Assembly (NCBI GenBank): GCA_964016885.1
Contig: OZ024743.1
Location: forward strand, 152,582,001 to 152,646,000
Direction: 5' to 3'
DNA length: 64,000 nucleotides
From: Eledone cirrhosa
Lineage: Eukaryota
The notes under the pieces were generated by a model, which had not been told where the DNA came from, did no database searches, and saw only the letters and a program-made list of their open reading frames with translations. The stretch's first letter is position 1. The number at the start of each line of letters is the position of its first letter. Shown here piece after piece: positions 1 through 36,865 of this stretch. The position numbers were made by a program, and so were the translations under genes.

Positions 1-1600
1 CAGAAAAGCATTCGATAGTTTGCCACACAGTTGGATTGAAAAGTGTTTAGAGATTTTCAAAATATCTCCCGTTATCAGGAGGTTCCTGTCATTCAGTATG
101 AAGACATGGAAAACGACACTCCTTTTGAATAGTGAAAAAAAAATCACTGGAAGCTGGAGAAGTTAATATTAATTGTGGAATTTTTCAGGGTGAATCTTTA
201 TTACTGCTTTTATTCTGCATCGTACTTATACCATTAAGTAAAATGCTCAATGAAACAAAACATGGATATAAAGTCTATGACAAAACCATTAATCACTTGT
301 TCTACATGGATGACCTGAAACTATTTGCAAAAAGTGATGAGCAATTACAAGGGCTATTATCAACTGTGAAGCAGTTCAGTGATGATATTAAAATGGAGTT
401 TGGACTAGATAAATGCTCCAAAGCCACGTTCAGGAAAGAAGGAGGACGTGGGTTAATACAGTTAGATATTGCGTTGAAAACAGCAACAATTGGATTATCT
501 ACATATCTAAGGGAATCACATGATTGGATGATCAAACTCGTTTTGAAACATGAAAGCATCAAAAGATCATACTCCATTACAAAGATGCACAAAGATACAG
601 TAATGAACTACAAATTTCAGAAGTTCCATTTACTGCTGAAATGAAAAACAGAAAAAGCAAAGCAGGTAAAAGTAACTGCAAAGAAAGAACTGCTACAGAA
701 ATTTGCTAAGAAATGGCAAGTATGGAAAATATCCAGAAAGAGCTAACAATCCTGATGTTGACAAAACTTTAACCTATCAGTGGATGGCATCTTCTCGACT
801 GAAATCGGAGACTGAAAGACTAATTATATCAGCATAAGATCAGTGTCTGCCAACAAAAAATTACCAAGCCAACATAATAAAAAATGGATGCAACCCATTA
901 TGCCGTGTATGTAAAAAACAACCAAAGTCCATTGATAATATAATTTCAATGTGCAGTCCTATAGCTCCAACCGAATACCTAAACAGGCACGACAGAGCTG
1001 CACAATACATACATTGGATAATGTGTAAGCATTTTGACCTGTCCCATCAAAAGAATTGGTGGGAGTATCAACCAACTCCCGTACTTGAAAAAGATCACAT
1101 CTCAATCTTGTGGAAATTTAACATCCAAACAGACCGAAAAATAGACCTGATATTATACTGAAGGACTTTAAAAAGCGGGTATGCCTGGTAATTGATATGT
1201 CCGTTCCAATAGACAAGAACGTATCTATAAAAACATTTGAAAAATTGAGCAAGTATAAAGCCATGGAGATAGAAATTGGAAAAAATGGAAGTTGAGAACT
1301 AAAACAATACCAGTGGTTGTAGGCGCTCTAGGAATGATACCTAAGGGGTCTAATGATTACTTATCGCAAATCCCAGGAAACCCGCGTATAGGAGAAATAC
1401 AAAAGATAGTACTAATGGGAACTGCCCATATACTAAGGAAGATTCTGTCAATATAAGTACATCACAAGTCTAAATACCTAAAGATGCATGTGTGTGTATG
1501 TGTGTTCTTTCTTGAACATGGCGGACCTTGTTGTCTCTTGAGGTCACTGGTTGTGACTTGGTGATAACTCGTATGAATATTAAGCAAGATAAATGCAACT
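1..1600 (+). mobile_element. Dong/R4-clade non-LTR retrotransposon, family A, degraded copy running off the left edge
   Basis: RT motifs GIFQG and HLFYMDDLKLF, RLE region (RHD, PVVVGALG). Near-identical to 8623-10916 but with an internal deletion near 431 and frameshifts. The 3' UTR ends in ataataat. Confidence 0.92.
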
Positions 1601-1608
1601 ATAATAAT

Positions 1609-1773
1609 TGTTTCTACTTTTGGCACAAGGCCATCAAATACCCAGTACATTACGTAAGGATGAAAGGCAAAGTTAACCTCGGCGGGATTTGAACTCAGAA
1701 TAGCAAGGGCTGTAACTCTGTGCGTCAAAGCATAGCGTCTGACCCGCTACCAATACTTCCAATCCACCGCCCT
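1609..1773 (-). mobile_element. tRNA-derived SINE with (ATT)n tail, internally deleted copy
   Basis: Minus strand shows an A-box-like tggaagtattggtag, B box gagttcaaatcc, body gccgaggttaactttgcctttcatcc and tail ggccttgtgccaaaagtagaaacaattatt. Confidence 0.88.
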
Positions 1774-1775
1774 TT

Positions 1776-1810
<35 letters not shown>

Positions 1811-1840
1811 GTATTGTTTCTACTTTGGCAAAGGCCAACA

Positions 1841-2232
1841 ATGCTTTCATTATTAATCACAAGGGTAAAGCATAAAGAAAGCATTATTAATCACAAGGGT
1901 TGAATAAAGTATAACATTAAGGACAGCAGAGGATGGTACAAAGGGGCATTTCTGCGTGTAAAGAATAAAACGAAACAATAGCAAAGGAAGTAACAAAAGA
2001 AATTTCCCAATAGGGGGAGGGGGGTAGACGTCAGAGGGCCACTCGTGGAGAAAGCCCACACAAAGTTTCGGTGAACCTGACCACCAGGGCAAGTGCCCTC
2101 TCCCAGTTTTCCACCTCCAATCTACTGGTGCATACTCAGAGGAGCCCCATCCATCTTTCAATAAATTGCTGAGGAGGAGCACTTCACTCTCCCCCCTGAT
2201 TTTCTTTTTCAAATAAAAATTTGAAAAAGTTA
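1841..2232 (-). mobile_element. Tx1-clade element, 3' terminal fragment
   Basis: Matches the 3' UTR and ORF2 end (NF..LKKKIR.E.EVL) of the Tx1 copies at 3443 and 11977. The 3' terminus is duplicated. Confidence 0.8.
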
Positions 2233-2245
2233 AATAATAATAAAT

Positions 2246-3393
2246 GCAGAAAATTTCGGAGCTGTGTTTATTGTTAGGTACAGTGCTGGAATTCTCAAAA
2301 GGAATGTTACTGAACAAAAAGAAATTGATAGAAAGACTAGGAAGCTAATGACTACCTACAGCATATTCCACAAGAGGAGTGATGTTGATAGATTCTACTT
2401 AAAGAGATCTGAATGTGGAAGAGGTCTTATCAGCATAGAGGACTGTGTTCAGATAGAGTAAAACAATCTGCACAAATATGTGTCCATGAGTAGGGAACCA
2501 ATGCTCAAAGTTGTTCTGAAGGAGTGGACAATAGACCAGGGGATGTCCAAGGAGGAAGTAAAAACAAAGAGGATGATCAACCTTAATGAAAAATCCCTTC
2601 ATAGCACCTTTTTTAAGATAACGGAATTCAGAGATCCACAGGCATGGAGCTGGTTAAAGAGAGCAGACCTTAAAAAAGCTACAGAAGGAATGCTAATGGC
2701 TGCACAAGTGCAACCCCTCAGAACGAAGTGGGTGAAACACTAAACTGACAAGGAGGAGGCTAGCTCACACAGTAGGATTTGTAGAGAAAGAGAGGAGACT
2801 GTGGCTCATATCATATCCGAATGTAAACACCTAACCCAGATTCATTATAAAGGCTGGAGGCATGATATAATAGGAAAGGTGATCCACTGGAATTTGCGCA
2901 AACTAATAATTTACCACATTCTGAGAAGTGGTATGAGCATAAATCAGAGTGAAGGTGCTATGGGATTTCAGGATACAGACAGACAAGAAATTAGAACACA
3001 ATAGGCCTGACCTGGTGGTTTTTGACAAGGAAAAAAGATCATGCCTGATTGTAGATGTAGCCTGCCCCTTTGACACAAGAGTGCAAGAAAAGGAGTAGGG
3101 GAAAATTAACTGATACCAGGATTTAAAGAGGGAATTATAAATGATTTGGGACTGTCATGAGATCATGGCCATCCCGATTGTCATAGCAGCACTAGGCACT
3201 ATCTCAAAGAGTTTTCAAGGATGGGTAAGGAACATTAGTACAGCCTCGTTGTTTGGAACACTTCAAAAGGCAGCCCTGCTGGGAACAGCATGAACACTCT
3301 GATACGTCCTGAATATCTGAGGGTGCTGGTAGCAGCTTGATGTTCATTGGAACAAACTTTCCAGTTAAATGACTTCAATGACTGAGACTCAAA

Positions 3394-3394
<1 letters not shown>
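2246..3394 (+). mobile_element. Dong/R4 family B, 5'-truncated degraded copy
   Basis: Homologous to 21750-22920 (RYSAGIL, GRGLISIEDC, RHD, RPDL motifs). Ends ctgagactcaaag followed by (AAT)n. Confidence 0.9.

Positions 3395-3442
<48 letters not shown>
3395..3442. repeat. (TAA)n microsatellite at a tail-to-tail Dong-B/Tx1 junction
   Basis: Direct reading. Confidence 0.97.
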
Positions 3443-3443
<1 letters not shown>

Positions 3444-6400
3444 TTTTCTTTATTAACCACAAGGGTTCACATAAAGTAGACATTAAGGACAGTACAGGAC
3501 AATACAGGACGGTACAAATGGGCATTTCTGCGTGTAAAAAAACAGAGGTTGAAATAAAATAACAAAGAAAAATTCCCCAATAGGGGGGAGACTTCCAAGG
3601 GACATTTGTGGAGAAAGCCCATTAAAAGACCACAGTGGCCCTGACCACCAGGGCAAGTGCCCTCTCCCAGTTTTCCACCTTTAATTTACAGACACATACT
3701 CAGAGAAGGCCCATTCATTCGGGCCATACTTGCTTCTCTCACCCATCTTTCAACAAAATGCTGGGAAGAGAGCACTTCCCTCTCTACCCTGATTTTCCTT
3801 TTCAAATGAAATTTGAAAAAGTTAATCAGGGCATCAGCCCTTTCAAACGTGTCCACCATACTATCTCTTTCGCCATGGCCACCAGACAGATAAAAACTGC
3901 CTGCCCTTCCCGGCTAAAGAAAGAGGGCGAGGCAATCCTCACGATGGACTCAGCTGATAGCTGGATCCGTGATACACGTGACAGCAGGTGTTCGACATAA
4001 ACCCACAAGTCAGCAATGCTCGGACACTGGATGAGTGCGTGCAGGACGGTTTCGTCGCCCTGTGCGCATCTCGGACATTCCCGGCTGACGGCACCTCCAT
4101 GCCTGTAGAGTTTATCCCGAACTGGCAAAGCACCCCGGTAGCACGGCCAGGGATTTCTGGAAGTTGTCCATAGGCCCCGGCCCGAAAGTCCTTCCGAAGA
4201 GATTGGCTAGTTGATTTTCGTCGACGCCTAGAGTTTCTCCAAGTACGTCGTCGCTCTTACCCTCCACTAATCCCCTATAGAACGCCAAGGTGGAGTTTCC
4301 ACCGATCACATTGCCCGATTGGTCAAGGGCTGTGAGCGCCTGAAGACATTCCAGTCTCCAAGCGCTCCCTCTCGGTCTTCGCTTGACCCAGGACTGCAGC
4401 TCCGTCAAGGAGACGAGCTGGGGAAAAACGTGTCTAGCAAACGGCGACCACACCTGATCACCGTCGAGGAAGATGTGAAGATGTCGTAGCCTGAGCGCGT
4501 GTCTGTGCATCATCAACCACGGCATGCCCAGCCCTCCACGTAGCGGGTGTTGACAGCAGATGGACCGCCTGACCATCGGAGTGCGTCCCTTCCACAAGAA
4601 GCGAAAGAGCAAACGCTCCAGCGCAGTCAGGCGGGGCTTAGGACAAGGTACGACGGTCAGGCGGTAGTAGATGACGGACGCGATGTACGCGTTAGCCACC
4701 TCCGCTCGAGCTTTCAGGGATAGCTTCCTCTCGGCCCATTTCTGGGTTAGAGAAGCCACACTGCTCGTCACCTCGTCCCAGTTTTTGTCCGTCTGGAGGT
4801 CTGGACCGAACCAGACCCCTAGCAATTTAACCGGTCCGTCCGTTCAGCGCCCGACGACGCTGTTGGACGGCATGGACCTACCTCTCCAGGTGCCGAGCTG
4901 CAGGCCCACTGACTTTTCCTGGTTGATCATTGCTCCTGTCACCGCTTCGTATTCTCTTAGTGTAGTGCCGATCGCCTCGATGTGTTTGGCGTTCGACACC
5001 ACTACGGTGACATCGTCCGCATATGCTGACACGGATCTTCCGCATCCTAGTTCGCGCGGGACCCCCCTCAACGTCTCCAGTTTGTGCAGTAATGGCTCGA
5101 GTGTCAATACGTACAATAGGGACGAGTGGGGATATCCTTGGCGGACCGAGCGCATGATGTTGAACGGTTCCGAAAGGTGACCGTTCACTCTCACTACAGA
5201 GCAGATGTCGCTGTGCATGGCAGCGATCCAGCCTCTGAAGACGGGCCCAAAGCCAGCCGCCCTCATGACTGCCGCTAGGTAACGATGGTCGACCCTATCG
5301 AAGGCTTTCGACTGATCTAAATTGATCAAAGACCCACCCGTGCCAGGTTCCCTAGCTACCTTCTCTACGATGTATCGCATGAGGTGGAGGTTGTCGTGGA
5401 TGGATCTGTCGGGAATGGCGCATGTCTGTGCCTCTCCCATCAGACCACCAACAACAAGCGCCAACCTCTTTGCTAGCACCTTGGCCAAAATATTGAACTC
5501 TGTGTTTAGCAGAGTTATGGGCCTAAAATTATCTATGTTATCCCCCTTGTTCGGATCCTTTCTCAGCAGTGCCACCGCTCCTCGGCTCACAGAGCTGGGA
5601 ATTCTCCCGTTCTGTTGCCAGTTGCAGTAGACGTCCGCCAAGAGGCCTCCGAACAGGTCTGGCATTTGTACGTAAAGTTCATAGGGCAGACCATCTAAAC
5701 CAGGCGATTTACCCCTTGTGCAGCCAGTCATTGCCTCCCGTACTTCAGCGGTTGTTATCGGCTTTTCGCAACACTCCGCCTCAGTGGCCGAAAGCCGCGG
5801 CAGTCCGTCGAGGTAGACACTAAAGTCCATCCCTCGATCCGGCCCGCCACTGCCCCCGAACAGTTGAGCGAAGTGTCGCTGAAAAGCTTCACACATTTGC
5901 CCGGGATCGAGTAGCATGCGCCCGTCGTGGTCCACCAAAGACCGAATCGTGGCTTTATTGCCACGACGCGCCTCTGCCACTCGGGCCCATTGAACGGCTT
6001 TCGTCCCCTCGTATCTGAGAGCACGCATCCTAGCTCTGACAACGCAGCCTTCGTGCTTTGCATTGAAGAATTGGTCAAGGGCCAATTTCGCCGCAAGTAC
6101 GTCGGTCGCGATGCCTTTGCTAAGCGCCTCGTCTAATTTTCTAACTAATTCTCCCTCTGCTCTATTTTTCTCTATTGCTAAAGCCTTACTAAACCTAATG
6201 GACTCTATTCTAATTGCTCTTTTCAGAGCAAACCACCACTTGTTGTTGACGATGGCCCCCGTCAACGCCCGCTTAACTAGTTCGCTAATCCGGTCTCTGT
6301 AGGCCTTGCCTGCTGGTAAGGATGCGTTTAGCTTCCAGTAGCCGGGTCCTCGTCTATGAAGCCTATCTAATTCAAGCACACAGATCACGAATTTGTGGTC

Positions 6401-7400
6401 CGTGTAGCTGACTATCTTGAATTATGGACAGCCTATGCTAGACCTATCTATTTCCCTACAAAATACTCTATCTAGATATGATCTGGATGACCCTATGCGA
6501 TTTGTCCAATTCCACATTGGTACATTCGGGAAATCCATTCGGTACCTGGCAGACAGTTCAAAACGCCTGAGCAGGTTGGTGAGGCTCTTGCACCCTCCTC
6601 CCCTATCCACTAATCCCACACAGTCCCAGCGTGCATCTAAGATCCCGTTCCAGTCGCCCACTAACACTAAAGAGCGGGACGTTCCTAGAAAGGTCTCCAG
6701 ACGCCGGAAGAAATCAGGCCGCCCTGCTCCTGTCGAGGCATAGACGGCCACTAGCCTGAAAACTTTCCCTTCTCCGCTGGTCACGTCCAGCACCACCAAC
6801 TTACCTTCTGGGTCCAGGAAGATGGCCCGTATGGCGAGATCCAAACCTCTCCGAAAAAGCACAGCAAATCCTCCCCCGATCCAGGACGGCTGGGAGATGC
6901 ATACACATCGTAGCCGCCGAAGATCGGTGCGAAGGCACGTGCTTCGGAGATTCTGGTCTCGCTGATGGCCACTACATCTATGTTTAGTGACCTGATGTCG
7001 TTGAGCAGGTGGCCCTGCTTCCATGACGACCCAAAGCCACGCGCATTTATGCTGCCTATTCTGAGTGAGGTCATGTTGAAATGGATTGGAAAAGATGGGT
7101 AAGACCACTTACCTTTGTTCTCGTAGAGGAAGGACGGTTTCTCCATCCTTTTCACTGCTTGTGGCCTCCTCTATCTATGAGTATATCCGAATATACCCTC
7201 CGGTTGAGTGTCCCTCCTAGGTCTCTGAAATCACCAACTGCGTTGGGGAATTTCGTTTTAATGTCTGTGTATTGTTTCTGTGCTATTTTTACCAGTCTTA
7301 TGTTCGTTGGTGTTTTGATTGGTGCTGGTATTATGTAGTCGTGCTGTGAAATGCCTGTGTGTTCAATTACGTAAGTCATTAGTTTCTTGTTGTGTGTATT
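3443..7400 (-). mobile_element. Tx1-clade (L1-like) retrotransposon family a, 5'-truncated within ORF1
   Basis: Carries APE, RT and zf-RVT regions. The 3' end cccttgtggttaataaagaaaac runs into (ATT)n, and an AT-rich attattaata junction lies at the 5' side. Confidence 0.93.
3686..7074 (-). pseudogene. Tx1 ORF2 (APE endonuclease, reverse transcriptase, C-terminal zinc-binding region), disrupted
   Basis: MTSLRIGSINARG..SETR, GDWNG, SYLDR, TDH (APE); FRPITLLN, DQSKAFDRVDH, VRQG, AYADD (RT); CPRC..DETVLHALIQC. A few stops and frameshifts. Confidence 0.92.
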
Positions 7401-7410
7401 TATTAATAAT

Positions 7411-8559
7411 CAACAATTGGATTATCTACATATCTAAGGAAATCACATGCTTGGATGATCAAACTCGTTTTGAAACACGAAACCATCAAAAGATCATACT
7501 CCATTACAAAAGATCAACAAAGATACAGTAATGGACTACAAATTTCAGAAGTCCCATTTACTGCTGAAATGTGAAACACAGATAAAGCAAAGCAGGTAAA
7601 AGTAAATGCAAAGAAAGAACTGCTACAGAAACTAGCTAAGAAATGGCAAGAAAAGCCTCTGTATGGAAAAAACCCAGAAAGAGCTAACAATCCTGATGTT
7701 GACAAAACTTTAACCCACCAGTGGTTGGCATCCTCTGGACTGAAATCGGAGACTGAAGGACTGATTATATCAGCACAAGATCAGTGTCTCCCAACAAAAA
7801 ATTACTAAGCCAACATAATAAAAAATGGATGCAACCCATTATGCCGTGTATGTAAAAAAAAAAGAAAACAACAAAGAAAACAATCAGAGACCATTGATCA
7901 TATAATTTCAATGTGCAGTCCTATAGCTCCAACCGAATACCTAAACAGGCATGACAGAGCTGCACAATACACACACTGGATAATGTGTAAGTATTTTGAC
8001 CTGCCCCATCAAAAGAATTGGTGGGAGCATCAACCACCTCCCATACTTGAAAAACTTGTGGAACTTTAGCATCCAAACAGACTGAAAAATAGATGCAAAT
8101 AGGCCTGATATAATACTGAAGGACTTTAAAAAGCGGGTATGTCTGCTAATTGATATGTCCGTTCCAATAGAAAAGAATATATCTATAAAAACATTTGAAA
8201 AATTGAGCAAGTATAAGGACCTGGAGATAGAAATTGGAAAAATGTGGGAATTGAAAACTAAAACAATACCAGTGGTTGTAGGCGCTCTAGGAATGATACC
8301 TAAGGGGTCTAATGATTACTTATCGCAAATCCCAGGAAACCTGCGTATAGGAGAAATACAAAAGATAGTACGAATGGGAACTGCCCATATACTAAGGAAG
8401 ATTCTGTCAATATAAGTACATCACAAGTCTAAACTCCTAAAGATTCATGTGTGTGTATGTATGTCCTTTCTTGAACATGGCGGACCTTGTTGTCTCTTGA
8501 GGTCACTGGTTATGACTTGGTGATAACTCGTATGAACATAAAGCAAGATAAATGCAACT

Positions 8560-8560
<1 letters not shown>
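7411..8560 (+). mobile_element. Dong/R4 family A, 5'-truncated copy
   Basis: Matches 9780-10916. Ends aatgcaactg followed by (TAA)n. Confidence 0.92.

Positions 8561-8622
<62 letters not shown>
8561..8622. repeat. (TAA)n microsatellite between tandem Dong-A copies
   Basis: Direct reading. Confidence 0.97.
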
Positions 8623-8623
<1 letters not shown>

Positions 8624-10916
8624 CGTAAAAGATACCATCATGGCTAGTTAACGGCATTACATTCCTGCTACCGAAGAATGATGAGACAAACAATCCCAAA
8701 AATTACAGACCGATAACCTGCTTGACCACAATGTATAAAATTTTAACATCAGTCCTAACTGAATACACATATGACCACCTGATAACAAATGACCTATTTC
8801 CCATTGAGCAGAAAGGGTGTAAACGAGGCTCATATGGCTGTAAGGATCAGCTTCTGGTTAACAAAATGATACTGGAAGATTGTCATAATAGACACAAAAA
8901 TCTATCGATCGCTTGGATAGATTATAAAAAAGCATTTGATAGTTTGCCACACAGTTGGATTGAAAAATGTTTAGAGATTTTCAAAATATCCCCCGTTATC
9001 AGGAGGTTTTTGTCATTCAGTATGAGGACATGGAGAACGACACTCCTTTTGAATAGTGAAACAAAATCACTGGAAGCTGGAGAAGTTAACATTAATTGTG
9101 GAATTTTTCAGGGTGACTCTTTATCACCGCTTTTATTCTGCATCGCACTTATACCATTAAGTAAAATGCTCAATGAAACAAAACATGGATATAGAGTCTA
9201 TGACAAAACCATTAATCACCTGTTCTACATGGATGACCTGAAACTATTTGCAAAAAATGATGAACAATTGCAAGGGCTATTATCCACTGTGAAGCAGTTC
9301 AGTGATGACATTAAAATGGAGTTTGGACTGGATAAATGCGCCAAAGCAACGTTCACCAGAGGAAAGCTGCTGAAGAGTTCAGACATTAATCTTGATCGGG
9401 GGAACGTGATAAGAGAGCTTGATCAAGAACAAACTTACAAATATCTAGGTGTTTGTGAAGGAGACGGAATCAAGCACTCGACAATGAGGGAAAGGATAAG
9501 GAAGGAATGTTACCGCAGAGTCAGAGCAATCTTAAGAACGGAATTGAATGCAAGGAATAGGATCGATGCCATAAACACGCTTGCCATACCAGTAGTAACC
9601 TACAGTTACAATGTCATCAACTGGTCAAGCACAGAGATCCGTAGGCTCGATACAAAAATCCGAAAATTCTTAACCATGCACAGAATGCATCACCCTAAGG
9701 CAGACATAGATAGAATATATCTCCCTAGGAAAGAAGGAGGACGTGGGTTAATCCAGTTAGACATTGCGTTGAAAACTGCAACAATTGGATTATCCACATA
9801 TCTAAGGGAATCACATGATTGGATGATCAAACTCGTTTTGAAACACGAAAGCACCAAAAGATCATATTCCATTACAAAAGATGCACAAAGATACAGTAAT
9901 GGACTACAAATTTCAGAAGTCCCATTTACTGCTGAAATGGAAAACACAGAAAAAGCAAAGCAGGTAAAAGTAACTGCAAAGAAAGAACTGCTACAGAAAC
10001 TGGCTAAGAAATGGCAAGAAAAGCCTCTGTATGGAAAATACCCAGAGCGAGCTAACAATCCTGATGTTGACAAAACTTTAACCCATCAGTGGTTGGCATC
10101 CTCTGGACTGAAATCGGAGACTGAAGGACTGATTATATCCGCACAAGATCAGTGTCTGCCAACAAAAAATTACCAAGCCAACATAATAAAAAATGGGTGC
10201 AGCCCATTATGCCGTGTATGCAAAAAACAACCAGAGACCATTGACCATATAATTTCAATGTGCAGTCCTATAGCTCCAACCGAATACCTAAACAGGCATG
10301 ACAGAGCTGCACAATACATACATTGGATAATGTGCAAGCATTTTGACCTGCCATATCAAAAGAATTGGTGGGAGCATCAACCACCTCCCATACTTGAAAA
10401 AGATCACATCTCAATCTTGTGGAACTTTAGCATCCAAACAGACCGAAAAATAGATGCAAATAGACCTGATATAATATTGAAGGACTTTCAAAGGAGGGTA
10501 TGCCTGCTAATTGATATGTCTGTTCCAATAGACAAGAATGTATCTATAAAAACATTTGAAAAATTGAGCAAGTATAAGGACCTGGAGATAGAAATTGGAA
10601 AAATGTGGAAATTGAGAACTAAAACAATACCAGTGGTTGTAGGCGCTCTGGGAATGATACCTAAGGGGTCTAACGACTACTTATCGCAAATCCCAGGAAA
10701 CCCGCGTATAGGAGAAATACAAAAGATAGTACTAATGGGAACTGCCCATATACTAAGGAAGATCCTGTCAATATAAGTACATCACAAGTCTAAACACTAA
10801 GGATGCATGTGTGAATATGTGTGTTCTTTCTTGAACATGGCGGACCTTGTTGTCTCTTGAGGTCACTGGTTGTGACTTGGTGATAACTCGTATAAACATA
10901 AAGCAAGATAAATGCA
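8623..10916 (+). mobile_element. Dong/R4 family A, young 5'-truncated copy flanked by (TAA)n on both sides
   Basis: Begins mid-ORF (PSWLVNGITFLLPK..NYRPITCL), has an uninterrupted frame and an ~140-nt 3' UTR. Confidence 0.95.
8722..10776 (+). CDS. Dong/R4 polyprotein, C-terminal 684 aa (RT, CCHC finger, PD-(D/E)xK restriction-like endonuclease); N-terminus missing
   Basis: [68 protein letters not shown]. No internal stop. Confidence 0.9.
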   Translation: MTTMYKILTSVLTEYTYDHLITNDLFPIEQKGCKRGSYGCKDQLLVNKMILEDCHNRHKNLSIAWIDYKKAFDSLPHSWIEKCLEIFKISPVIRRFLSFSMRTWRTTLLLNSETKSLEAGEVNINCGIFQGDSLSPLLFCIALIPLSKMLNETKHGYRVYDKTINHLFYMDDLKLFAKNDEQLQGLLSTVKQFSDDIKMEFGLDKCAKATFTRGKLLKSSDINLDRGNVIRELDQEQTYKYLGVCEGDGIKHSTMRERIRKECYRRVRAILRTELNARNRIDAINTLAIPVVTYSYNVINWSSTEIRRLDTKIRKFLTMHRMHHPKADIDRIYLPRKEGGRGLIQLDIALKTATIGLSTYLRESHDWMIKLVLKHESTKRSYSITKDAQRYSNGLQISEVPFTAEMENTEKAKQVKVTAKKELLQKLAKKWQEKPLYGKYPERANNPDVDKTLTHQWLASSGLKSETEGLIISAQDQCLPTKNYQANIIKNGCSPLCRVCKKQPETIDHIISMCSPIAPTEYLNRHDRAAQYIHWIMCKHFDLPYQKNWWEHQPPPILEKDHISILWNFSIQTDRKIDANRPDIILKDFQRRVCLLIDMSVPIDKNVSIKTFEKLSKYKDLEIEIGKMWKLRTKTIPVVVGALGMIPKGSNDYLSQIPGNPRIGEIQKIVLMGTAHILRKILSI

Positions 10917-10973
<57 letters not shown>
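10917..10973. repeat. (TAA)n microsatellite at a tail-to-tail Dong-A/Tx1-b junction
   Basis: Direct reading. Confidence 0.97.
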
Positions 10974-10975
<2 letters not shown>

Positions 10976-11957: not shown

Positions 11958-12217
11958 TAATAATAATAATAATAATGCTTTCTTTATTAACCACAAGGGT
12001 TTACACAAAGTAAGACATTAAGGACAACACAGGGCGGTACAAATGGGCATTTCTGCGTGTAAAAAAACAGAGGATGTAACAAAAAAAAGAAACAATGAAA
12101 AATTCCCCAATAAGGGGGAGACTTCCGAGGGACATTCGTCGAGAAAGCCCATTAAAAAAAGTCACGGTGATACTGACCACCAGGGCAAGTGCCTTCTCCC
12201 AGTTTTCCACTTTCAAT

Positions 12218-14901: not shown

Positions 14902-14936
14902 GTTGAAAAGGAGTGGAAAAAGATGGGAAATACCAC

Positions 14937-21737: not shown

Positions 21738-21749
21738 GCCATTGTTATT

Positions 21750-26296: not shown

Positions 26297-26298
<2 letters not shown>
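21750..26298 (-). mobile_element. Dong/R4 family B, apparently full length (~4.55 kb)
   Basis: Bounded by (AAT)n on both sides on the minus strand. A single long ORF, an ~1.08-kb leader and a short 3' UTR. The 5' boundary is inferred from the microsatellite. Confidence 0.88.
21824..25216 (-). pseudogene. Dong/R4-B polyprotein (~1130 codons; RT, CCHC, RLE) with one in-frame premature TAG
   Basis: The 383-aa and 729-aa ORFs are in the same frame, split by TAG at 24065-24067 where the paralog has TGG (48103-48105). Motifs KSPGPDG, FMDD, CRIC..H..C, RHD, RPDLVVVD..IVDVACP. Confidence 0.93.

Positions 26299-26352
<54 letters not shown>
26299..26352. repeat. (ATT)18 microsatellite separating head-to-head Dong-B and Tx1-a
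   Basis: Direct reading. Confidence 0.97.
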
Positions 26353-26562
26353 GGCGACCTACGTAGTAAATCGTATCATCGTGAGCTCCGCAAAGGTTTG
26401 TTATTTTCAGTTATTTAAAATTGCCATTTATGGAAAATTTTTATTGTTAACTGTATACAAGTGCACATACATTGTTATCTGAAAAGGACACCCAAAAGGA
26501 TTGGGGCCTTGTGCCCAAAATTTAAACTTTTATGATTATCAAAAAATTTCTTTGAAAAAACC

Positions 26563-28475
26563 ATGGCTGATTCACCTCTGCACCAAGCAACTGAGAGCCT
26601 TCCTCACAAACTAACACCTCACACGGACACCACCATTGTAAATATTACTACGTTTGCCAACACTAAAAATATAAGCAGTAGCAATATTTTTAATTTGTCT
26701 CAGGCAGACATTCATTTCCCGCCATTACCAATGACTGCAGGTGTTAAAGTCGCCACCCCCACCAGCACCACAGCGACAACAGAAACAATAGAAAAAAATA
26801 AATTAACTCGTGATATCGAGATGAATTCAACCAAAATGAACTCTTCCACACCGAACACCACTGACGCCACCACCACCACAACTGAAACTAAAATTAATAA
26901 CAAAAATAACGATAACAACAACAGCAACAATGAAATTAAGAAAACCATTCTGAGTTTTGCCAGAGTAGCAAAACAGTGCGAAGCATTTCAGGTAATTCAG
27001 GAGGAATTAGAAGAAGCCAAACAATTGGTAAAGAAAGATGGGTACAGGGTCAGCCTCACCGCCCCACCTAATAAAATGGAGCATCGGCGCCTATGCACCG
27101 TGTCTTATCGAACAATTAATATAAAATCGCGCCGAGTGGAACGGGCATCCGAGTCCCAAATCCCAAAAGCTTTGGGTCATGTGTGGGCAAAAAAACCCCA
27201 CATCAGACGTGGCCAGAAGTATGGAACCGTGGACGTGTTCTTTGAAACACCACAGGAGGCTAGAGAACACTCCATGGCCCCATTAAGAAGTGACGACTTC
27301 ACACTCGTCCCCAGCTATTGTGGCCAGAGACTCGTAAAGATCAGGGTCACCCACGTTCCACCGGCCATCGAAATTCCCTGGCTAATAGCTGCCGTCCTCG
27401 CCGGCATCGAAGCCAACACCAAGATAATCGAAATAGCGAAAGAAAAGCAAGAGAACTGGTCCGGATCTGGGATGAAGCTCCTGATCCAAGCGGACCAAAA
27501 AAGCATTGAGGAGATCCCAGAGGTAATAGACCTCACTGACGGCAGCCACCTCACCGTAATTGTCGAGGGCAGAAGGCCTAGGTGTGTCGTTTGTGGTGAA
27601 GGCTAAGGTTGAGACCACCTCTCCTACCCACCCCAGTGACTCAACCATCAACACCACCAGCAGCAGAGATGGCAGCAACAACTGTAGCAGCAACAACAGA
27701 TGCAACTGTAACAGCAACAACCCCAGCAACAGTAGCAAAACCAACACCACCACCACCCAATGCGCCAGAACAAGCACCAGCGCCTACACCATCCACCACG
27801 CCACAACCAAAACTAACGCCTGTGGAGGATTTTCCACTCCCCGGCCTATCACAACTGGAGACAGATTGTGACGATGAGGGGGAGTGGGAAATGGTATCAG
27901 GAAAAATGAAAAAGAAAAAAAAAAACAAAAAGAAAAAATCCTCTTCCTTCGCCCTCCAAAAATAAAATGCAGGGGGAAACAAATAAGCAAACAAACAAAA
28001 ATGTTAAGACAGCTATGCCACCACCCACACCAGCATCACCAGCCCCATCACCACAAATACCAACACCATCATCATCATTAACCCCACAACCACCATCACC
28101 AACACCACAAAAATCACCAAAAAGCGAAACAGAAACAAACCCATAACGAACGCAAACAAAACAAAACAACCAAAGCGATACACACTACACAGCATTAAAT
28201 TTGAACAACAACCAATTATTATACTACATCCAACACAACACCAGCATCACAGAAAAGACTACACAACAACCAAAAAGTTCACACCACCTCCACACATACA
28301 AATCACTCGCATCACACAGAAAACGTACATGACACTAAAACAAAAATTCCCCAAAGACATCGGAGACTTCCGACAAGCACTCTCCAGGAGGATTTATAAG
28401 GACATCCTTCCTGAGGAGGCCACAAGCAGTGAAAAGGATGGAGAAACCGTCCTTCCTCTACGAGAAGTAAGGTAA
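26563..28475 (+). pseudogene. Tx1 ORF1, frameshifted
   Basis: ATG at 26563 opens 347 aa ending RPRCVVCGEG (knuckle partly deleted), then Thr/Pro-rich and Lys-rich segments ending ..ETVLPLREVR*. Confidence 0.87.
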
Positions 28476-28509
28476 GTGGTCTTTCCCATCTTTTCCACTC
28501 CATTTCCAC

Positions 28510-31203
28510 ATGACCTCACTCAGAATAGGCAGCATAAATGCGCGTGGCTTGGGGTCGTCATGAAAGCAGAGCCACCTGCTCAACGACCTCAGGTCACTAA
28601 ACATAGATGTAGTGGCCATCAGAGAGACCAGAATCTCCGAAGCACGGGCCTACGCACCGATCTTCAGCGGCTACGATGTGTACGCATCTCCCAGCCGTCC
28701 GGGATAGGGGGGCGGATTTGCTGTGCTTTTTCGGAGAGGTTTGGATCTCGCCATACGGGCCATCTTCCTGGACCCAGAAGGTTGGTAGTGCTGGACGTGA
28801 CTAGCGGAGACGGGCAAGCTTTCAGGCTAGTGGCCGTCTATGCCCCGACAGGAGCAGGGCGCCCTGATTTCTTCCGGCGTCTGGAGACCTTTCTTCGAAC
28901 GTCCCGCTCTTTAGTGTTATTGGACGACTGGAACGGGATCTTAGATGCACGCTGGGACTGTGTGGGATTAGCGGATAGGGGAGGAGGGTGCAAGAGTATC
29001 ACCAACCTTCTCAGGCGTTTTGAACTGTCTGACAGGTACCGATTGGATTTCCCGAATGTGCCAATGTGGACTTGGACAAATCGCATAGGGTCATCCAGAT
29101 CATATCTAAATAGAGTATTTTGTAGGGAAATAGATAGGTCTAGCATAGGCTGTCCACAATTCAAGATAGTCAGCTTCACGGACCACAAATTCGTGATCTG
29201 TGTGCTTGACTTAGATAGGCTTCATAGACGAGGACCCGGCTACTGGAAGCTAAACGCGTCCTTACCAGCAGGCAAGGCCTACAGAGACCGGATTAGCGAA
29301 CTAGTTAAGCGGGCGTTGACGGGTGGTATGCTCTGAAAAGAGAAATTAGAATAGAGTCCATTAGGTTTAGTAAGGCTTTAGCAATAGAGAAAAATAGAGC
29401 AGAGGGAGAATTAGTTAGAAAATTAGACGAGGCGTTTAGCAAAGGCATCGCGACCGACGTACTTGCGGCGAAACTGGACCTTAACCAATTCTTCAATGCA
29501 AAGCACGAAGGCTGCGTTGTCAGAGCTAGGGTGCGTGCTCTCAGACACGGGGGGACGAAAGCCGTTCAATGGCCCGAGTGGCGGAGGCGCGTCGTGGCAA
29601 CAAAGCCACGATCCGGTCTTTGGTGGACCACGACGGGCGCATGATACTCGATCCCGGACACAGCTGATTGGGGGCAGCGGCTGGCCGGATCGAGGGAAGG
29701 ACTTTAGTGATTACCTCAATGGCCTGCCGCGGCTCTTTGCCACTGAGGCGGAGTGTTGCGAAAAGCCGATAACAGCCGCTGAAGTACGGGAGGCAATGAC
29801 TGGCTGCACAAGGGGTAAATCGCCTGATTTGGATGGTCTGCCCTATGAACTTTACGTACAGATGCCAGACTTGATCGGGGGCCTCTTGGCAGACGTCTAC
29901 TGAAATGCAACAGAACGGGAGAATTCCCAGCTCTGTGAGCCGAGGAGCTGTGGCACTGCTGAGAAAGGATCCGAACAAGAGGGATAACATAGGTAATTTC
30001 AGGCCCATAACTCTGCTAAACACAGAGTTCAATATTTTGGCCAAGGTGCTAGCAAAGAGGTAGGCACCATTCCCGACAGATCCATCCACGACAACCTCCA
30101 CCTCATGCGATACATGATAGAGAGGGTAGCTAGGGAACCTTGCACGGGTGGGTCCTTGATCAATTTAGATCAATCGAAAGCTTTCGATAGGGTCGACCAT
30201 CGTTACCTAGCGGCAGTCATGAGGGCGGCTGGCTTCGGGCCCCTCTTCAGAGGCTGGATCGCTGCTATGCACAGCGACATCTGCTCTGTGGTGAGAGTGA
30301 ACGGTCACCTTTCGGAACCGTTCAACATCACTGGGCATGCCGTGGCTGATGATGCGCAGACACGCGCTCAGGCTACGACATCTCCACCTCTTCATCGACG
30401 GTGATCAGGTGTGGTCGCCGTTTGCTAGACACGTCTTTCCCCAGCTCGTCTCCTTGACGGAGCTGCAGTCCTGGGTCAAGCGAAAACCAAGAGGGAGCAC
30501 TTGGAGACTGGAATGTCTTCAGGCGCTCACAGCCCTCGACCAATCGGGCAATGTGATCGGTGGAAACTCCACCTTGGCGTTCTATAGAGGATTAGTGGAG
30601 GGGAAGAGCGACGATGTACTTGGAGAAACTCTAGGCGTCGACGAAAATCAACTAGCCAATCTCTTCGGAAGAACTTTTGGGCCGGGGCCTATGGACAACT
30701 TCCAGAAATCCCTGGCCTGGCAGTGCTACAGAGGAGCTTTGCCAGTTCGGGATAAACTCTACAGGCATGGAGGTGCCGTCAGCCGGGCATGTCCGAGATG
30801 CGAGCAGGGCGACGAAACCATCCTGCACGCACTCGTCCAGTGTCCGAGCATTGCTGAGTTGTGGGTTTATGTCGAACACCTGTCACGTGTATCACGGATC
30901 CAGCTATCAGCTGAGTCCATCATGAGGATTGCCCCGCCCTCTTCCTTTAGCCGGGAAGGGCAGGCAGTTTTTATCTGTCTGGTGGCCATGGTGAAAGAGA
31001 TAGTATGGTGGACACGTTTGAAAGGGCTGAAGACGAGCACTTACCTCTTCGGTGATGCCCTGATTAACTTTTTCAAATTTCATTTGAAAAGGAAAATCAG
31101 GGTAGAGAGGGAAGTGCTCTCTTCCCAGCATTTTGTTGAAAGATGGGTGAGAGAAGCAAGTATGGCCCGAGTGAATGGGCCTACTCTGAGTATGTGTCTG
31201 TAA
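28510..31203 (+). pseudogene. Tx1 ORF2 (APE plus partial RT plus C-terminal domain), disrupted
   Basis: MTSLRIGSINARG, VAVYAP, TDHK, PGYWKLN, DQSKAFDRVDH, CPRC motifs. Confidence 0.92.
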
Positions 31204-31446
31204 ATTAAAGGTGGAAAACTGGGAGAGGGCACTTGCGCTGGTGGTCAGGGCCACTGTGGTCTCTTAATGGGCTTTCTCCACAAATGTCCCTCGGAAGTCT
31301 CCCCCCTATTGGGGAATTTTTCTTTGTTATTTTATTTCATCCTCTGTTTTTTTTACATGCAGAAATGCCCATTTGTACCGTCCTGTATTGTCCTGTACTG
31401 TCCTTAATGTCTACTTTATGTAAACCCTTGTGGTTAATAAAGAAAA

Positions 31447-31483
<37 letters not shown>

Positions 31484-31536
31484 CTAGAAATCATTATTAT
31501 TGTTACTATTATTATTATTATTATTTCCATTATTAC

Positions 31537-32645
31537 TTTACCAAAGACAGCTCTGTGCGCCTGGAGCATGAGCAGTGTAGCTTTTGCTGATGTTGTTTCT
31601 ATTGCATTGATACTACTTTTCGGAATATGTGTGCAATAACTAGTAGAGCTATATTTTGTATGCTGTATATATTTCTAAGTCCTGGGGTTTTGACTATGTA
31701 GGGCATTGTGTGCAGAGGATCTGTGCAGACTGGAGAGGAACGAAGCTTGCATGCTCCGTTGGATGTGTAATAGTAATATACGTGAACGGCAAAGCATAAA
31801 TGAACTAAGTGAGAAATATGGAATAAGAGGGATCAGATGCTGTTTACTCGAGAGAAGACTACGTTGGTATGGTCACGCACGTGATGTGCATGAAAGACGA
31901 CAGCTGTATAAAAAAATGCAGGGCGATCAAAATAGATGGAAGATACGGAGTAGGCAGACCCAGAAAAACCTGGGACAATTTGATAAATTCTGACCTTACA
32001 CACTGACACCTCTCCAAGACAATGTCACTGGAACGAGATCTTTGGTGCTACGCAGTAATACAGAAGACCCACCATGCCTAAGTACAAAGTGAAACCTACA
32101 GTCACTAGGCACATCCTAACCAAAAATACACCCCCACCCCACTACACCTACCCCCCACCCCCATATACACCACCCCTTTCTCTGTAAAGTTATGTTGGTG
32201 CCACAACATCCAGTCCTAAATAAATGAGGTCGTGTAGGTGTCACAACAAAAAAGACACACTCTCCACGCTGTAATGTGGCCGTGTAGGTAACACGGTAAA
32301 AACCTCCCAGTCCACACTGTAAACGTGGTTGGTGTTAGGAAGGGCATCCAGCCGTAGAAAACCCTCCAGACAGTCCTATACGAGCAAGACAACCAATCCT
32401 GCCTCATGTGGGACAATTCCCGTCTAAACCCATGCTAGCTTGGAAGATAGACGTTAAATGATGATGATGATGATGATGATTTGTCTGTGTGTTTTTTTAT
32501 AATTCCTAGGGCACCTATTATTATAGGCATATGGTTTTCATTTTCCACATTCGAAATATTTCCATCTCTATATTTGGAAAGTTTCTTTATTTCCTTGGAA
32601 TATATATATTGTCGTCTGTGGAGATAGATACATCTATTAGAAGGT
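31537..32645 (-). mobile_element. Dong/R4 family C 3' fragment, split by an RTE insertion
   Basis: 31537-31700 and 32481-32645 join seamlessly (acacagacaa|tacatagtcaaaacccc) and match 58960-59290. Confidence 0.8.
31701..32480 (+). mobile_element. RTE-clade LINE, 5'-truncated 3' fragment with (GAT)n tail
   Basis: MLRWMC..RRLRWYGH and GRPRK.W motifs. Close to 44760-45547. Confidence 0.9.
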
Positions 32646-32667
32646 ATTTATTATTATTAAAATGTCA

Positions 32668-32984
32668 ATCTGAGTTCAAATCCCGTCGAGGTTAACTTTG
32701 CCTTTCACGCAGTCAATAAAATAAAGTACCAGTCATGCACTGGAGTCGATTTAATCGACTCTCCCCTCCTCCAAAATTGCTGGCCTTGTGCCTAAATAAG
32801 AAACCATTATTGGCAGTATCGGTAGAGGGTCGGATGCCATGCTTTCCATCATAGTTACGTCCCTTTACGATCTGAGTTCAAATCCCGCCGAGGTTGACTT
32901 TGCCTTTCATCATTTCGGGGTCGATAAAATAAAGTACCAGTAATGCACTGGGTAATTGCTGGCCTTGTGCCTAAAGTAGAAACA
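32668..32984 (+). mobile_element. Two tandem SINEs (long-subfamily 3' part 32668-32806; short subfamily 32811-32984)
   Basis: B boxes, shared body, tails ggccttgtgcctaaataagaaacc and ggccttgtgcctaaagtagaaac, each followed by att repeats. Confidence 0.9.
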
Positions 32985-33005
32985 ATTATTATTATTATTA
33001 TTATT

Positions 33006-34075
33006 CTTTGAGTCTCAGTCATTGATGTTATTTAACTGGAAAGTTTGTGGAAATGAATATCAAGCCGTTACCTGCAGCCTCAGATATTCAGGACGTATTG
33101 GAGGGTTATTGCTGTTCCCAGCAAGCATGCCTTTTGAAGTGTTCCAAAAAGTGGGGCTAATCTTCTTTAACCATCCTTGGAAACTCTTTGAGATAGTACC
33201 TAGTGCACCTACGACAATCGGGACGACCTTGATTTCATGGCAGTTCCAAATCCTTTTTACCTCCCACTTTAAGTCCTGGTATCAGTTAATTTTCTCCCTC
33301 TCCTTTTCTTGTACTCTCGTGTGAAATGGGCAGGTTACATCTACAATCAGGCACAATCTTTTTTCCTTGTCCAAAACCACCAAGTCAGGCCTATTGTGTT
33401 CTAATTACTTGTCCGTCTGTAGCCTAAAATCCCATAGCACCTTCACCTGATCGTTTTCTATCACCGACTCTAGCTTATGCTCATACCACTTCTCAGAATG
33501 TGGTAAATTGTTTACTTTGCATAGATGCCTGTGGATCACCCTCCCTATCACATCATGTCTCTAGCCTTTATAGTGAGTCTGGGCTAGGTGTTTACACTCA
33601 GATACAATCTGTGCCACAGTCTCCTCTCTCTCTCCACAGATCCTACGAGATGGGCTAGCCTCCTCCTTGTAAATATGGAGTTTCACCCACTTCGTTTTGA
33701 GTGCCTGCTCTTGCGCAGCCATTAGCATTCCTTCTGTAGCCTCATTAAGGTCTCCTCTTTTTAACCAGTTCCATGTCTGTGGATCTCTAAATTCAGTTTT
33801 CTCAAAGAAGGTACTATGAAGGGATTTTTCATTAAGGTTGCTCTTCCTCCTTGTTGTTATTTCCTCCTTGGACATCCCCTGGTCTATTGTTCTCTCCTTC
33901 AGTACAATTCTGAGCATTGGCTCCCTACTCTCAGTCACGTATTTGTGCAGGTTGTTTTTCTCCATTTGAACACAGTTCTCTTTGCTGATAAGATCTCTTC
34001 CACCTTCAGATCTCTTTAAGTAGAGTCTATCGACATTACTCCTCTTGTGTAACATGTTGCAGATAGTCAATAGCT
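33006..34075 (-). mobile_element. Dong/R4 family B, 5'-truncated copy
   Basis: Matches 21750-22825. Flanked by (ATT)n on the + strand. Confidence 0.92.
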
Positions 34076-34095
34076 TATTATTATTATTATTATTA

Positions 34096-34738
34096 CAGTT
34101 GCATTTATCTTGCTTTATGTTCATACGAGTTATCACCAAGTCACAACCAGTGACCTCAAGAGACAACAAGGTCCGCCATGTTCAAGAAAAAACATACAGA
34201 CACACACATGCATCTTTAGTTGTTTAGACTTGTGATGTACTTATATTGACAGAATCTTCCTTAGTATATGGGCAGTCCCATTAGTACTATCTTTTGTATT
34301 TCTCCTATACATGGGTTTCCTGGGATTTGCGATAAGTAATCATTAGACCCCTTAGATATCATTCCTAGAACGCCTACAACCACTGGTATTGTTTTAGTTC
34401 TCAATTTCCACATTTTCCCAATTTCTATATGCAGGTCCTTATACTTGCTCAATTTTTCAAATGTTTTTTAGAAACATTCTTGTCTATTGGAACGGACATA
34501 TCAATTAGCTTTTTAAAGTCCTTCAGTATTATATCAGGTCTATTTGCATCTATTTTTCGGTCTGTTTGGATGCTAAAGTTCCACAAGATTGTGATGTGAT
34601 CTTTTTCAAGTATGGGAGGTGGTTGATGCTCCCACCAATTCTTTTGATGGGGCAGGTCAAAATGCTTACACATTATCCAATATATGTATTGTGCACCTCT
34701 GTCATGCCTGTTTAGGTATTCGGTTGGAGCTATAGGAC

Positions 34739-34740
<2 letters not shown>
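34096..34740 (-). mobile_element. Dong/R4 family A, 5'-truncated copy
   Basis: Reverse complement of the Dong-A RLE region and 3' UTR. Flanked by (ATT)n. Confidence 0.92.
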
Positions 34741-34770
<30 letters not shown>

Positions 34771-34809
34771 GTTGTTGTTTTTGTTGTTGTTGTTGTTATT
34801 ATTATACCA

Positions 34810-35760
34810 CAATTTAATCAATTACATACAACATAACACAAGCATTTCAGAAATACATCACATAACACCCAAAGAATTCACACCACCCACACACGTAAAC
34901 ATTATAAACAGTCGGGTGCTTTGATGGGTAGAAACTCAACCTTGATATTCCATAGAGCGTTAGTGGTGGGAAAGAACGACAACGTCCTTGGGAGACTGAG
35001 GGCATCAAATGAAAATCAACTAGACAATCTCTTTGGGAGAACTTTTAAGCCAGGGCCCATGACAACTTACATAAATCCCTGGCCTGGCTATTGAGGAGTT
35101 TTGCCAGTTCGGTTTAAACTCTACAAGCATGGAAGTGCCATCGGTCGGGTCTGTCTGAGGTGTGCGCAGGGCGACGAAACTTCTGCATGCACTTGCCGAG
35201 TGTCCGAGTACTGCCAGCCTCTGGGCTTATGTCAAGCACCTGCTGTCACGTGTAGGATGGATCCAATTATCAACTGAGTCCATTGTGAAGATCTCCACAC
35301 CATCCTTCTTTAGACAGGAAGGATAGACAGCTTTTATCTGCCTGGTGGCTATGACAAAAGAGGTGTGTGGTTGAAGACAGCCATTTTCCTCTTCAGCGAA
35401 GCCCTGAGTAACTTTTTCAGGTTTCACCTGAAGACGAAAATCAAGGTGGAGAGGGAAGTTTTGCATTACAGCCAGTTTGTTGAAAGGTGGGTGAGAGAGG
35501 CAAGAATGGCCCATGTGAATGGGCCTGCCTTGAGCATGTGCTTGTAGTATCATAGGAGGAAAACTGGGAGAAGGTTCTTGCCCTAACTTTTTGTGGTCTT
35601 TCTCCACAAGTGACCCTCAGAAGTCTCCCACCTATTGGGGAATTTTTCCTTTGTTTTCATGTTTTGTTACATCCTTTGTTTTTGTTTATATAATTTTGTT
35701 TTTTTACACGCAGAAATGTCCATTTGTACTGTCCTTAATGTTATACTTTATGTGTACCTT
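34810..35760 (+). mobile_element. Tx1 fragments (short ORF1-like piece, then ORF2 C-terminus and 3' UTR), degraded
   Basis: NFFRFHLKTKIKVEREVL..ERWVREARMAHVNGPALSMCL and 3' UTR acacgcagaaatg. Confidence 0.8.
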
Positions 35761-35789
35761 CGTTATATGTTGTGTTTCATTTTATTCTT

Positions 35790-36560
35790 GTATTGAAATT
35801 ACACTGTAATATGTATGCAGTGCATAGTAATGCTACTTTCTTTTTTGTTGTATATATGTGTAAATCCTGGATTTCTGATTACATTAGTAATCCCTACAAT
35901 ATGACATACCAAGGGAACTATTATTATAAGGATTGTTTTTGTAGCCACTTCCCACCATTTTGTTAATTCTATTTCCAGATATTTATATTTGGATAACAAA
36001 ATTAGAATTTAGTTTTTCACTCTAACATATTAGATATGTAAATGCATTCATTAGTTTTATATTGAATAAAAATAATATTCAATTTGTTTGCAAGCAAACA
36101 GTCTCATTACGCTATGTTTTTTAGATGACCATCACCGACCTTTTGTTCTTGCGGTAACAGAGAGAAACAACCAATAATATTGTTTCTGTTAAAGGGCAAT
36201 AACCCAAACAAATCAAATACTATTATTATTTGATATAAAACTCACAAATGCATATATTAGGATAAATTCTCCATTTCTCACGGGGATACATTATCAGCTA
36301 TTGGGACTGATATAGATTAGGGGGCCCTTTCTTTTCTGATGGTCCTTAATATTAATATCAAATACTTAATATCAATAACAGATTGATTTCCTTTGATCTT
36401 CCTGTTTGCATTGATTGGCATATCGCAGAATATGGAAACTTTCTCATCCTATGAGACATTTACTTGTGTATTTTTATAGCATCTCTTTTCTCTTGCTAAT
36501 TCATAATGCTGGCATGATTTTCAATGTATAATAGCTCTTAATGGTGGCATATTTAGTGTA
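35790..36560 (-). mobile_element. Old Dong/R4-like RLE fragments
   Basis: LSKYKYLEIELTKWW..TKTI and DEKVSIFCDMPI-like translations on the minus strand. Confidence 0.5.
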
Positions 36561-36593
36561 TGGAAGTTCCTGATTATTATTATTGTTATCATA

Positions 36594-36779
36594 GGGCGGT
36601 GAATTGGCAGTATCGGTAGAGGGTTGGACGCCATGCTTTCTAGCATAGTTGCGTCCCTTTACAGTCTGAGTTCAAATCCCGCTGAGGTTAACTTTGCCTT
36701 TCATCCTAATGGGGTCGATAAAATAAAGTACCAGCAATGTACTGGGTAATTGCTGGCCTTGTGCCTAAAGTAGAAACAA
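36594..36779 (+). mobile_element. Full-length tRNA-derived SINE
   Basis: gggcggtgaattggcagtatcggtag..gagttcaaatcc..ggccttgtgcctaaagtagaaac(aatt), embedded in (ATT)n. Confidence 0.92.
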
Positions 36780-36865
36780 TTATTATTGTTATCATAACCA
36801 TTCTCACCAACTATCACAACAACCACTCTCATAATGATTTGTAAAACCATTACCACTTCTACCTA

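Follow-up and report, generated by a model that had tools for sequence, protein, structure and literature searches.

How do retrotransposons of two unrelated classes come to lie in fixed, opposite orientations within one and the same microsatellite? The question is raised by a 64,000-nt stretch of contig OZ024743.1 of Eledone cirrhosa (hereafter the window, whose positions are used throughout), in which three kinds of element are packed into arrays spaced by TAA repeats: Dong-like elements with a reverse transcriptase (RT) and a restriction-like endonuclease (RLE), Tx1-like elements with an RT and an apurinic-type endonuclease (APE), and a short interspersed element (SINE). The answer that we favor, with a probability of roughly 0.75, is that reverse transcription in each family starts on one particular strand of the repeat and that every copy is left with repeat on both flanks, so that insertions would make further targets. 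The anatomy of the arrays, their polarity, the repeat at 5′ ends (also between two 5′ ends), the enzyme domains, and the 3′ signal common to the SINE and Tx1 are direct observations, and the strands used for priming would follow from them.

Polarity at the element ends

Copies were mapped by self-BLAST and with an element library cut from the window itself, and a junction table was compiled. An end was scored as touching the repeat when a run of at least 8 nt, read on the element's own strand, lay within 18 nt of it; element boundaries were set by hand and the scoring was not blind. On this scheme 53 of 75 scored ends touch a run, all 53 in the predicted polarity and none reversed. Dong-like elements have TAA at 8 of 14 5′ ends and 11 of 15 3′ ends, and TTA at none; Tx1-like elements have TTA at 5/8 5′ ends and 6/8 3′ ends, and the SINE at 12/15 and 11/15, respectively, with TAA at no end of either. 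As controls, none of 12 ends of RTE elements touches a run, and a run is present in 19 of 3289 background windows; an older SINE copy (61122–61323, plus strand, 69% similar) has repeat at neither of its two ends. The rule is followed by at least five Dong-like and at least five Tx1-like subfamilies, as grouped by hand, and the polarity pattern is confirmed as real within the window.

These ends do not all carry the same weight. Because a tail defines its own strand, the polarity of 3′ ends is partly trivial, and because the rule at each junction entails uniform polarity along an array, that uniformity adds no further evidence. A tract between two 5′ ends, by contrast, belongs to nobody's tail and is thus a remnant of the target; six such tracts of at least 8 nt were found, at 2233, 26299, 32648, 34739, 36573, and 50890.

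A preliminary description of this DNA had proposed the rule from two blocks. The first (1–17948) is contiguous as described, with four Dong-like elements on the plus strand, five Tx1-like elements and three SINE pieces on the minus strand, and spacers reading (TAA)n on plus. In the second (17950–36790) the orientations stand (six Dong-like elements on minus, three Tx1-like and six SINE copies on plus, spacers (ATT)n), but the block is not a single array, since 2.3 kb of unrelated DNA lies inside it. The outlying places at 36866–37460, 47070–53082, 53725, and 56840–59330 agree with the rule. That RTE and hAT elements ignore it is trivial, as the scored RTE ends never touch the repeat. The statement that no exception exists agrees with the absence of reversed ends from the tally but may fail at 25261–26298, where a piece perhaps of Tx1-type 5′ origin lies on the Dong strand.

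Anatomy of the arrays

The left block reads as follows (ORF, open reading frame).

1–1600, plus: Dong-like family A; 5′ end outside the window, internal deletion near 432
1610–1776, minus: SINE, its tail abutted by the Dong 3′ end
1811–1840, minus: SINE 3′ fragment
1841–2232, minus: Tx1-like 3′ piece, subfamily D
2233–2243: TAA tract flanked by two 5′ ends, a target and not a tail
2244–3394, plus: Dong-like family B, 5′-truncated
3443–7400, minus: Tx1-like family A, ORF2 with APE and RT, two stops and a frameshift near the start
7411–8560, plus: Dong-like A, 5′-truncated
8623–10916, plus: Dong-like A, flanked by (TAA)n on either side; open frame of 715 aa encoding RT, CCHC, and RLE motif
10974–11957, minus: Tx1-like B 3′ piece
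11977–17109, minus: Tx1-like A, 5′ end present, internal deletion; repeat on either side
17161–17841, minus: Tx1-like C 3′ piece
17845–17933, minus: SINE 3′ half
17934–17963: polarity pivot of (TAA)5, three bases, and (ATT)4, flanked by two SINE 5′ ends

Twin priming was considered as the origin of the pivot and rejected, as both SINEs retain their 3′ ends. Beyond the pivot, the contiguous right array spans 16.2 kb (20588–36790), including an RTE piece inside a Dong-like element.

17964–18273, plus: two SINEs in tandem with ATT tails, separate from the 16.2-kb array
18274–20587: unrelated DNA dividing the right block
20644–21422, minus: Dong-like A with a degenerate tail (20588–20643); the next piece is joined without repeat
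21423–21508, plus: Tx1-like B 3′ fragment
21517–21695, plus: SINE
21738–25260, minus: Dong-like B, whole ORF of 1130 codons with one stop
25261–26298, minus: multicopy 1-kb piece upstream of Dong B, composition like a Tx1 5′ untranslated region (UTR) and ORF1
26299–26352: (ATT)18 flanked by two 5′ ends
26353–31447, plus: Tx1-like A with 5′ UTR, ORF1, and ORF2 (internal deletion)
31526–32647, minus: Dong-like C 3′ piece, with the RTE piece inside at 31701–32478
32660–32984, plus: two SINEs
33006–34074, minus: Dong-like B 3′ piece
34096–34738, minus: Dong-like A 3′ piece
34806–35758, plus: Tx1-like E 3′ piece without its last bases
35759–36572, minus: old Dong-like piece, family E
36585–36778, plus: full SINE with A-box-like (36605–36616) and B-box-like (36668–36679) segments
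36779–36865: second polarity flip, the SINE tail on plus against a degenerate, G-poor SINE tail on minus
36866–37474, minus: SINE cluster, TAA on plus
47071–53081: third array of Dong B (plus), two SINEs (minus), Dong D (plus), and Dong A (plus)

Within the unrelated DNA, read depth is near single-copy in the bin 19821–20485. Three junctions (21422/21423, 35758/35759, and 17841/17845) have no repeat and clipped ends, which suggests deletions within the arrays.

The elements and their relatives

Dong-like families are deeply split, A and B sharing 44% amino acid identity. The B ORF has a central RT (RVT_1 match), and the closest solved chains to the Dong-like ORF are R2 proteins. A CCHC knuckle and a PD..D..K RLE motif lie C-terminally in families A and B and form invariant columns in a 26-row alignment. 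Neither by eye nor by Pfam was an N-terminal zinc finger or Myb domain found in the Dong-like ORF, an absence that is the R4 state. A ribozyme like that of hepatitis delta virus (HDV) was detected in 25150–26310 neither by descriptor nor by Rfam; the same descriptor, run with no positive control, found none in 11 of 11 relatives.

Among metagenome Dong-like loci that include the C-terminus (n = 45), TAA lies downstream within 400 nt in 22, TTA in three, and neither in 20; among those with the N-terminus (n = 20), TAA lies upstream in seven and TTA in none. Two of the TTA cases, L009 and L018, have (TTA)n 3′ tails and form a clade with 100/100 support nested among TAA-tailed rows, in a tree confined to 38 rows with at least 170 aligned residues and a labeled tail (for L019 and L064 the label "A" takes account of just the first run). 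Polarity can thus differ inside the RLE lineage, although this evidence concerns 3′ ends only; in the third TTA locus, L071, the run is distant and degenerate. No Tx1-best match was found beside Dong in 80 metagenome loci, most of them on contigs shorter than 5 kb.

Several features of these loci stand apart. An unrelated locus with Dong pieces on both strands, L045, contains a palindromic (TTA)5(TAA)6 at 150–185. The contig of a distant Dong-like element, L078, has (CTTA)n at its start (1–105) and again at its end, perhaps a different target. A tRNA-like 5′ head precedes Dong-like elements in L029 (84–168, by ARAGORN and Rfam) and, by eye only, in L004 and L025. The viral contigs searched yielded no Tx1 relative and one distant Dong-like locus, an ORF of 31% identity in an IMG/VR contig (L124, 2694–5946).

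Tx1-like elements have two ORFs, of which ORF2 contains APE, RT, and zf-RVT domains (Pfam), the APE motifs being read across a frameshift. The best solved match of ORF2 is L1 ORF2p (E = 1e-41), against 4e-20 for R2; a PDB search with the APE piece alone gave no match. The ORF1 of the Tx1 clade carries a CCHC zinc knuckle; that in the window breaks after C-x2-C, and the relative L081 has the full motif, at a Pfam E-value of 0.07 that is below the cut-off. ESM Atlas matches for ORF1 are weak leads only. The 3′ signal is kept, with an end in the C|ATT register, in seven of eight Tx1 pieces. Relatives with 43% amino acid identity lie on animal-like contigs of assembly CAXXMW01, where the signal GGCCTHGTGCC is present at 86 of 86 ends; these loci overlap and comprise nine distinct 16-mers, and are hence not 86 independent cases. 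These, the nearest Tx1 relatives, form head-to-tail tandem arrays of 98–99.7% identity.

The contigs in question (L081–L117 and L121), labeled as an Arenicella metagenome-assembled genome, consist of tandem Tx1-lineage units of 6.4–6.8 kb whose ORFs are intact and whose spacers are short and particular to each family. They are likely host contamination, and the elements were likely active very recently. In the window, the 5′ UTR of Tx1 A contains a 3′ signal resembling GGCCTTGTGCC about 150 nt from its start, at 26505 (plus) and 16959 (minus), so that the head of this element resembles a captured SINE-like or Tx1 3′ end.

In the SINE, the A and B boxes listed above were read from the sequence, and an Rfam scan returned no tRNA match on this family. 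Its last 30 nt resemble those of Tx1 at p < 0.01 in 29 of 49 pairs, as against 0/42 for Dong and 0/21 for RTE; SINE and Tx1 ends share the C|ATT register; and the GGCCTTGTGCC motif of the SINE matches the 3′ signal at the ends of Tx1 relatives in another animal. To judge from these similarities, the SINE is most likely mobilized by Tx1. The preliminary description had used SINE orientation as a witness to polarity. The orientation does fit, but given the common 3′ signal it is no independent evidence, and two machines rather than three are most likely at work. By resemblance, the SINE may be the octopus "OK" family.

Sequencing reads came from run X1 (organism A) and run X2 (organism B, possibly the assembly's own sample); a word share as small as that of X1 (0.17) carries no weight on its own. 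Read mapping was swamped by multicopy matches, and its results concern the best 15 of 18,751 joints and the best 24 of 27,973 loose ends. Dong B (21738–25260) is very abundant in X2 and nearly absent, at 85% likeness, from X1, whereas both runs are rich in Tx1 ORF2 and the SINE; we read this contrast as a lineage-specific burst.

Like Dong B, the piece upstream of it (25261–26298) is nearly absent from X1, and its depth in X2 is 25,000–41,000, compared with about 6–10 in unique contigs and 224,000 in the Dong ORF. In global alignment to both Tx1 A 5′ UTRs, its first 240 nt score above 999 of 1000 shuffles and 1041 of 1044 control windows, in a test chosen afterwards; the start codon falls in register and the composition resembles Tx1 ORF1. 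Local alignment to the same UTRs is borderline, and BLAST against the collected loci found no homolog. The whole may be a chimera, a Dong element with a captured Tx1 5′ end.

Probable priming strands, rival explanations, and precedents

The logic of target-primed reverse transcription assigns primer strands to the two enzyme classes from the orientation of their insertions, and L1-type nicking fits a T/AA step. Dong would thus prime on the (TTA)n strand, and Tx1 and the SINE on the (TAA)n strand, an assignment made in the preliminary description and supported here; from the seven of eight Tx1 pieces that keep the 3′ signal and end in C|ATT, we infer a Tx1 nick at T/AA. Two factors would jointly lock the polarity: which strand is preferentially nicked, and how the repeat tail of the RNA itself pairs. 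The SINE would be mobilized by Tx1 in trans. That repeat remains on both sides of insertions and targets multiply, as proposed earlier, is supported; each insertion would provide fresh targets, later insertions would inherit the polarity of the array, slippage would lengthen tracts, and deletions would trim some junctions. Growth from a single microsatellite, as the preliminary description proposed, may have occurred, but the right block is not one array and an inversion may have divided one array into the two blocks.

Several points weigh against this account. The evidence on polarity comes from a single window, in which 22 of the 75 scored ends have no repeat run. One of the eight TAA-positive Dong 5′ ends is the unassigned piece at 25261–26298, which would break the rule if it derives from the 5′ end of a Tx1 element. 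The names themselves rest on anatomy and target, as no named Dong or R4 reference was among the 120 Dong matches listed and no informative name among the 25 Tx1 matches listed. TAA or TTA is absent beside 96 of 96 3′ signals of the nearest Tx1 relatives, so that ATT targeting is narrower than the Tx1 lineage, and the 3′ hairpin of three window ends is not significant against shuffles (z = −1.6, 0.1, and 0.7). Furthermore, the read mapping, swamped as it was, revealed no empty allele among the best 15 of 18,751 joints and no long read across an array.

Other explanations bear on different parts of this account. The endonucleases alone might fix the strand, with RLE cutting only (TTA)n, APE only (TAA)n, and RNA-tail pairing playing no role. 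The endonuclease is called the main determinant of target choice in the available text of PMC4494074, and the C|ATT register is fixed at both Tx1 and SINE 3′ ends; a fixed RNA tail would equally yield a fixed register, however, and according to the available part of PMC6530143, R2Ol inserts more readily when the 3′ end of its RNA anneals to the target. The TTA-tailed clade of L009 and L018 also indicates, for 3′ ends, that the type of RLE does not fix polarity. We therefore consider this version conceivable but lean against it. The idea that two endonucleases share one microsatellite holds insofar as both families target the repeat, whereas the claim that the enzymes themselves fix polarity goes further than the pattern shows, since RNA-tail pairing predicts it equally; enzyme and RNA tail as setters of the strand would both fit the sequence. 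Without any targeting, the repeats would be the elements' own tails and the elements would have accumulated where the DNA is AT-rich or insertions are tolerated. Own tails are indeed expected at 3′ ends, which make up 28 of the 53 positives, but the other 25 are 5′ ends adjoining a run of the predicted polarity, six tracts have a 5′ end on either side, and regional RTE copies touch none; this view is already largely refuted and we consider it very improbable. Purging of inverted copies was also considered and rejected, as it gives no link between orientation and repeat strand.

Compatible with targeting is a further proposal, that a single array of at least 34 kb was divided into the two blocks when about 17949–36790, with breaks inside repeat tracts, was inverted or else turned round in the assembly. 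Just two polarity flips in the window are flush (17949 and about 36790); they enclose this one segment, whose reversal would unite both arrays and both SINE clusters in one polarity. Yet no joint linking the two places is among the best 15 of 18,751, no near-identical inverted duplication marks the breaks, and the palindrome in L045 indicates that flips can arise otherwise, which leaves the proposal tentative and somewhat doubtful. Segmental duplication or misassembly as the source of the arrays, one of the refuting outcomes named in the preliminary description, might be suspected from the presence of the same families on both sides of the pivot and from the lack of a long read spanning the region. 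It is contradicted by the identity between copies of the same family (66–94%, at best 93.6%), their differing truncation points, and the absence of mirror order, and an X2 short-read contig equals 36224–36615 with 0 differences across a head-to-head junction, at the bridging threshold and perhaps from the assembly's own sample; we give this origin scarcely any credence. A contig of organism A over 36391–36591 was rejected as an ortholog, the alignment being only partial.

Most of what is proposed here has parallels. As far as the available portions of PMC3812793 and PMC3774820 go, Dong targets TAA repeats, reading TAA on its own strand, and the 5′ junction primer of the latter places TAA repeats ahead of Dong. 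In the same partial view, Dong of the R4 lineage (Bombyx mori, Anopheles, Biomphalaria) resembles the present elements in its single ORF with RT, CCHC, and RLE in TAA repeats; here, in contrast, several deeply split families share an array with a second enzyme class, and at the one long 5′ end, which looks Tx1-like instead, neither the descriptor nor Rfam detected an HDV-like ribozyme. Kibi (TC), Koshi (TTC), and the crocodilian TTCC and TTTC families, in the accessible text of PMC4494074, are Tx1 elements, likewise APE-type members of the L1 group that prefer microsatellites; (ATT)n is not among the targets given there, and the target in the window is shared with an RLE element. TRAS and SART form arrays in opposite orientations in one silkworm telomeric repeat (PMC10088271, in part), the nearest likeness to two antiparallel families, but both are of the R1 clade and telomeric, whereas RLE and APE elements meet here in an interstitial microsatellite. 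Crocodilian SINEU shares target and orientation with Tx1-Mar, by which it is inferred to be mobilized (PMC4494074, section 16); the SINE of the window differs in its tRNA-type A and B boxes, its microsatellite target, and its link through a common 3′ signal. In Octopus vulgaris, the Dong-R4, L1-Tx1, and SINE families have expanded to high abundance with recent activity (PMC13282606; PMC8967140), the accessible parts of these reports making no mention of repeat targeting, nesting, or polarity; the set of families in the window fits an octopus host of this kind. Further related papers are likewise drawn on in part (PMC4640811, PMC5678591, PMC4758252, PMC9115989, PMC9004415).

With Dong in TAA repeats, antiparallel families, and Tx1-borne SINEs already in print, the surprise is limited: the window shows a familiar targeting habit taken further and not a mechanism of a new sort. 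Each ingredient has precedent; the combination of RLE element, APE element, and SINE on one microsatellite appears undescribed. A literature search found no ATT-targeting Tx1 lineage, no SINE partner of one, and no antiparallel Dong–Tx1 arrays, which is weak evidence of novelty, as Repbase reports, most subscription papers, and supplements lay outside its scope. If the account is correct, it would identify a Tx1 lineage that targets (ATT)n and the likely partner long interspersed element of a very abundant SINE, and it would explain the long, collapsed-looking repeat blocks and the abundance of AAT tracts here as targeted growth. Moreover, the two families invite a comparison of nick and RNA tail as determinants of insertion strand in a microsatellite. 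Conceivably, shared (TAA)n pads sustain an ecosystem throughout the genome, where strand-partitioned arrays are built, and parts traded, by an RLE element, an APE element, and the dominant SINE, with Dong B having taken a Tx1 5′ promoter and ORF1 region and spread in many copies, and with the tracts serving as inversion breakpoints; we regard this extension as unlikely.

Outside the arrays, a DNA-transposon-like insert lies at about 41393–43790, for which the hAT label of the preliminary description had no Pfam match. RTE-like elements form clusters at 39600–47066 and 54132–56834, with (ATG)n tails, some of which enter (AT)n.

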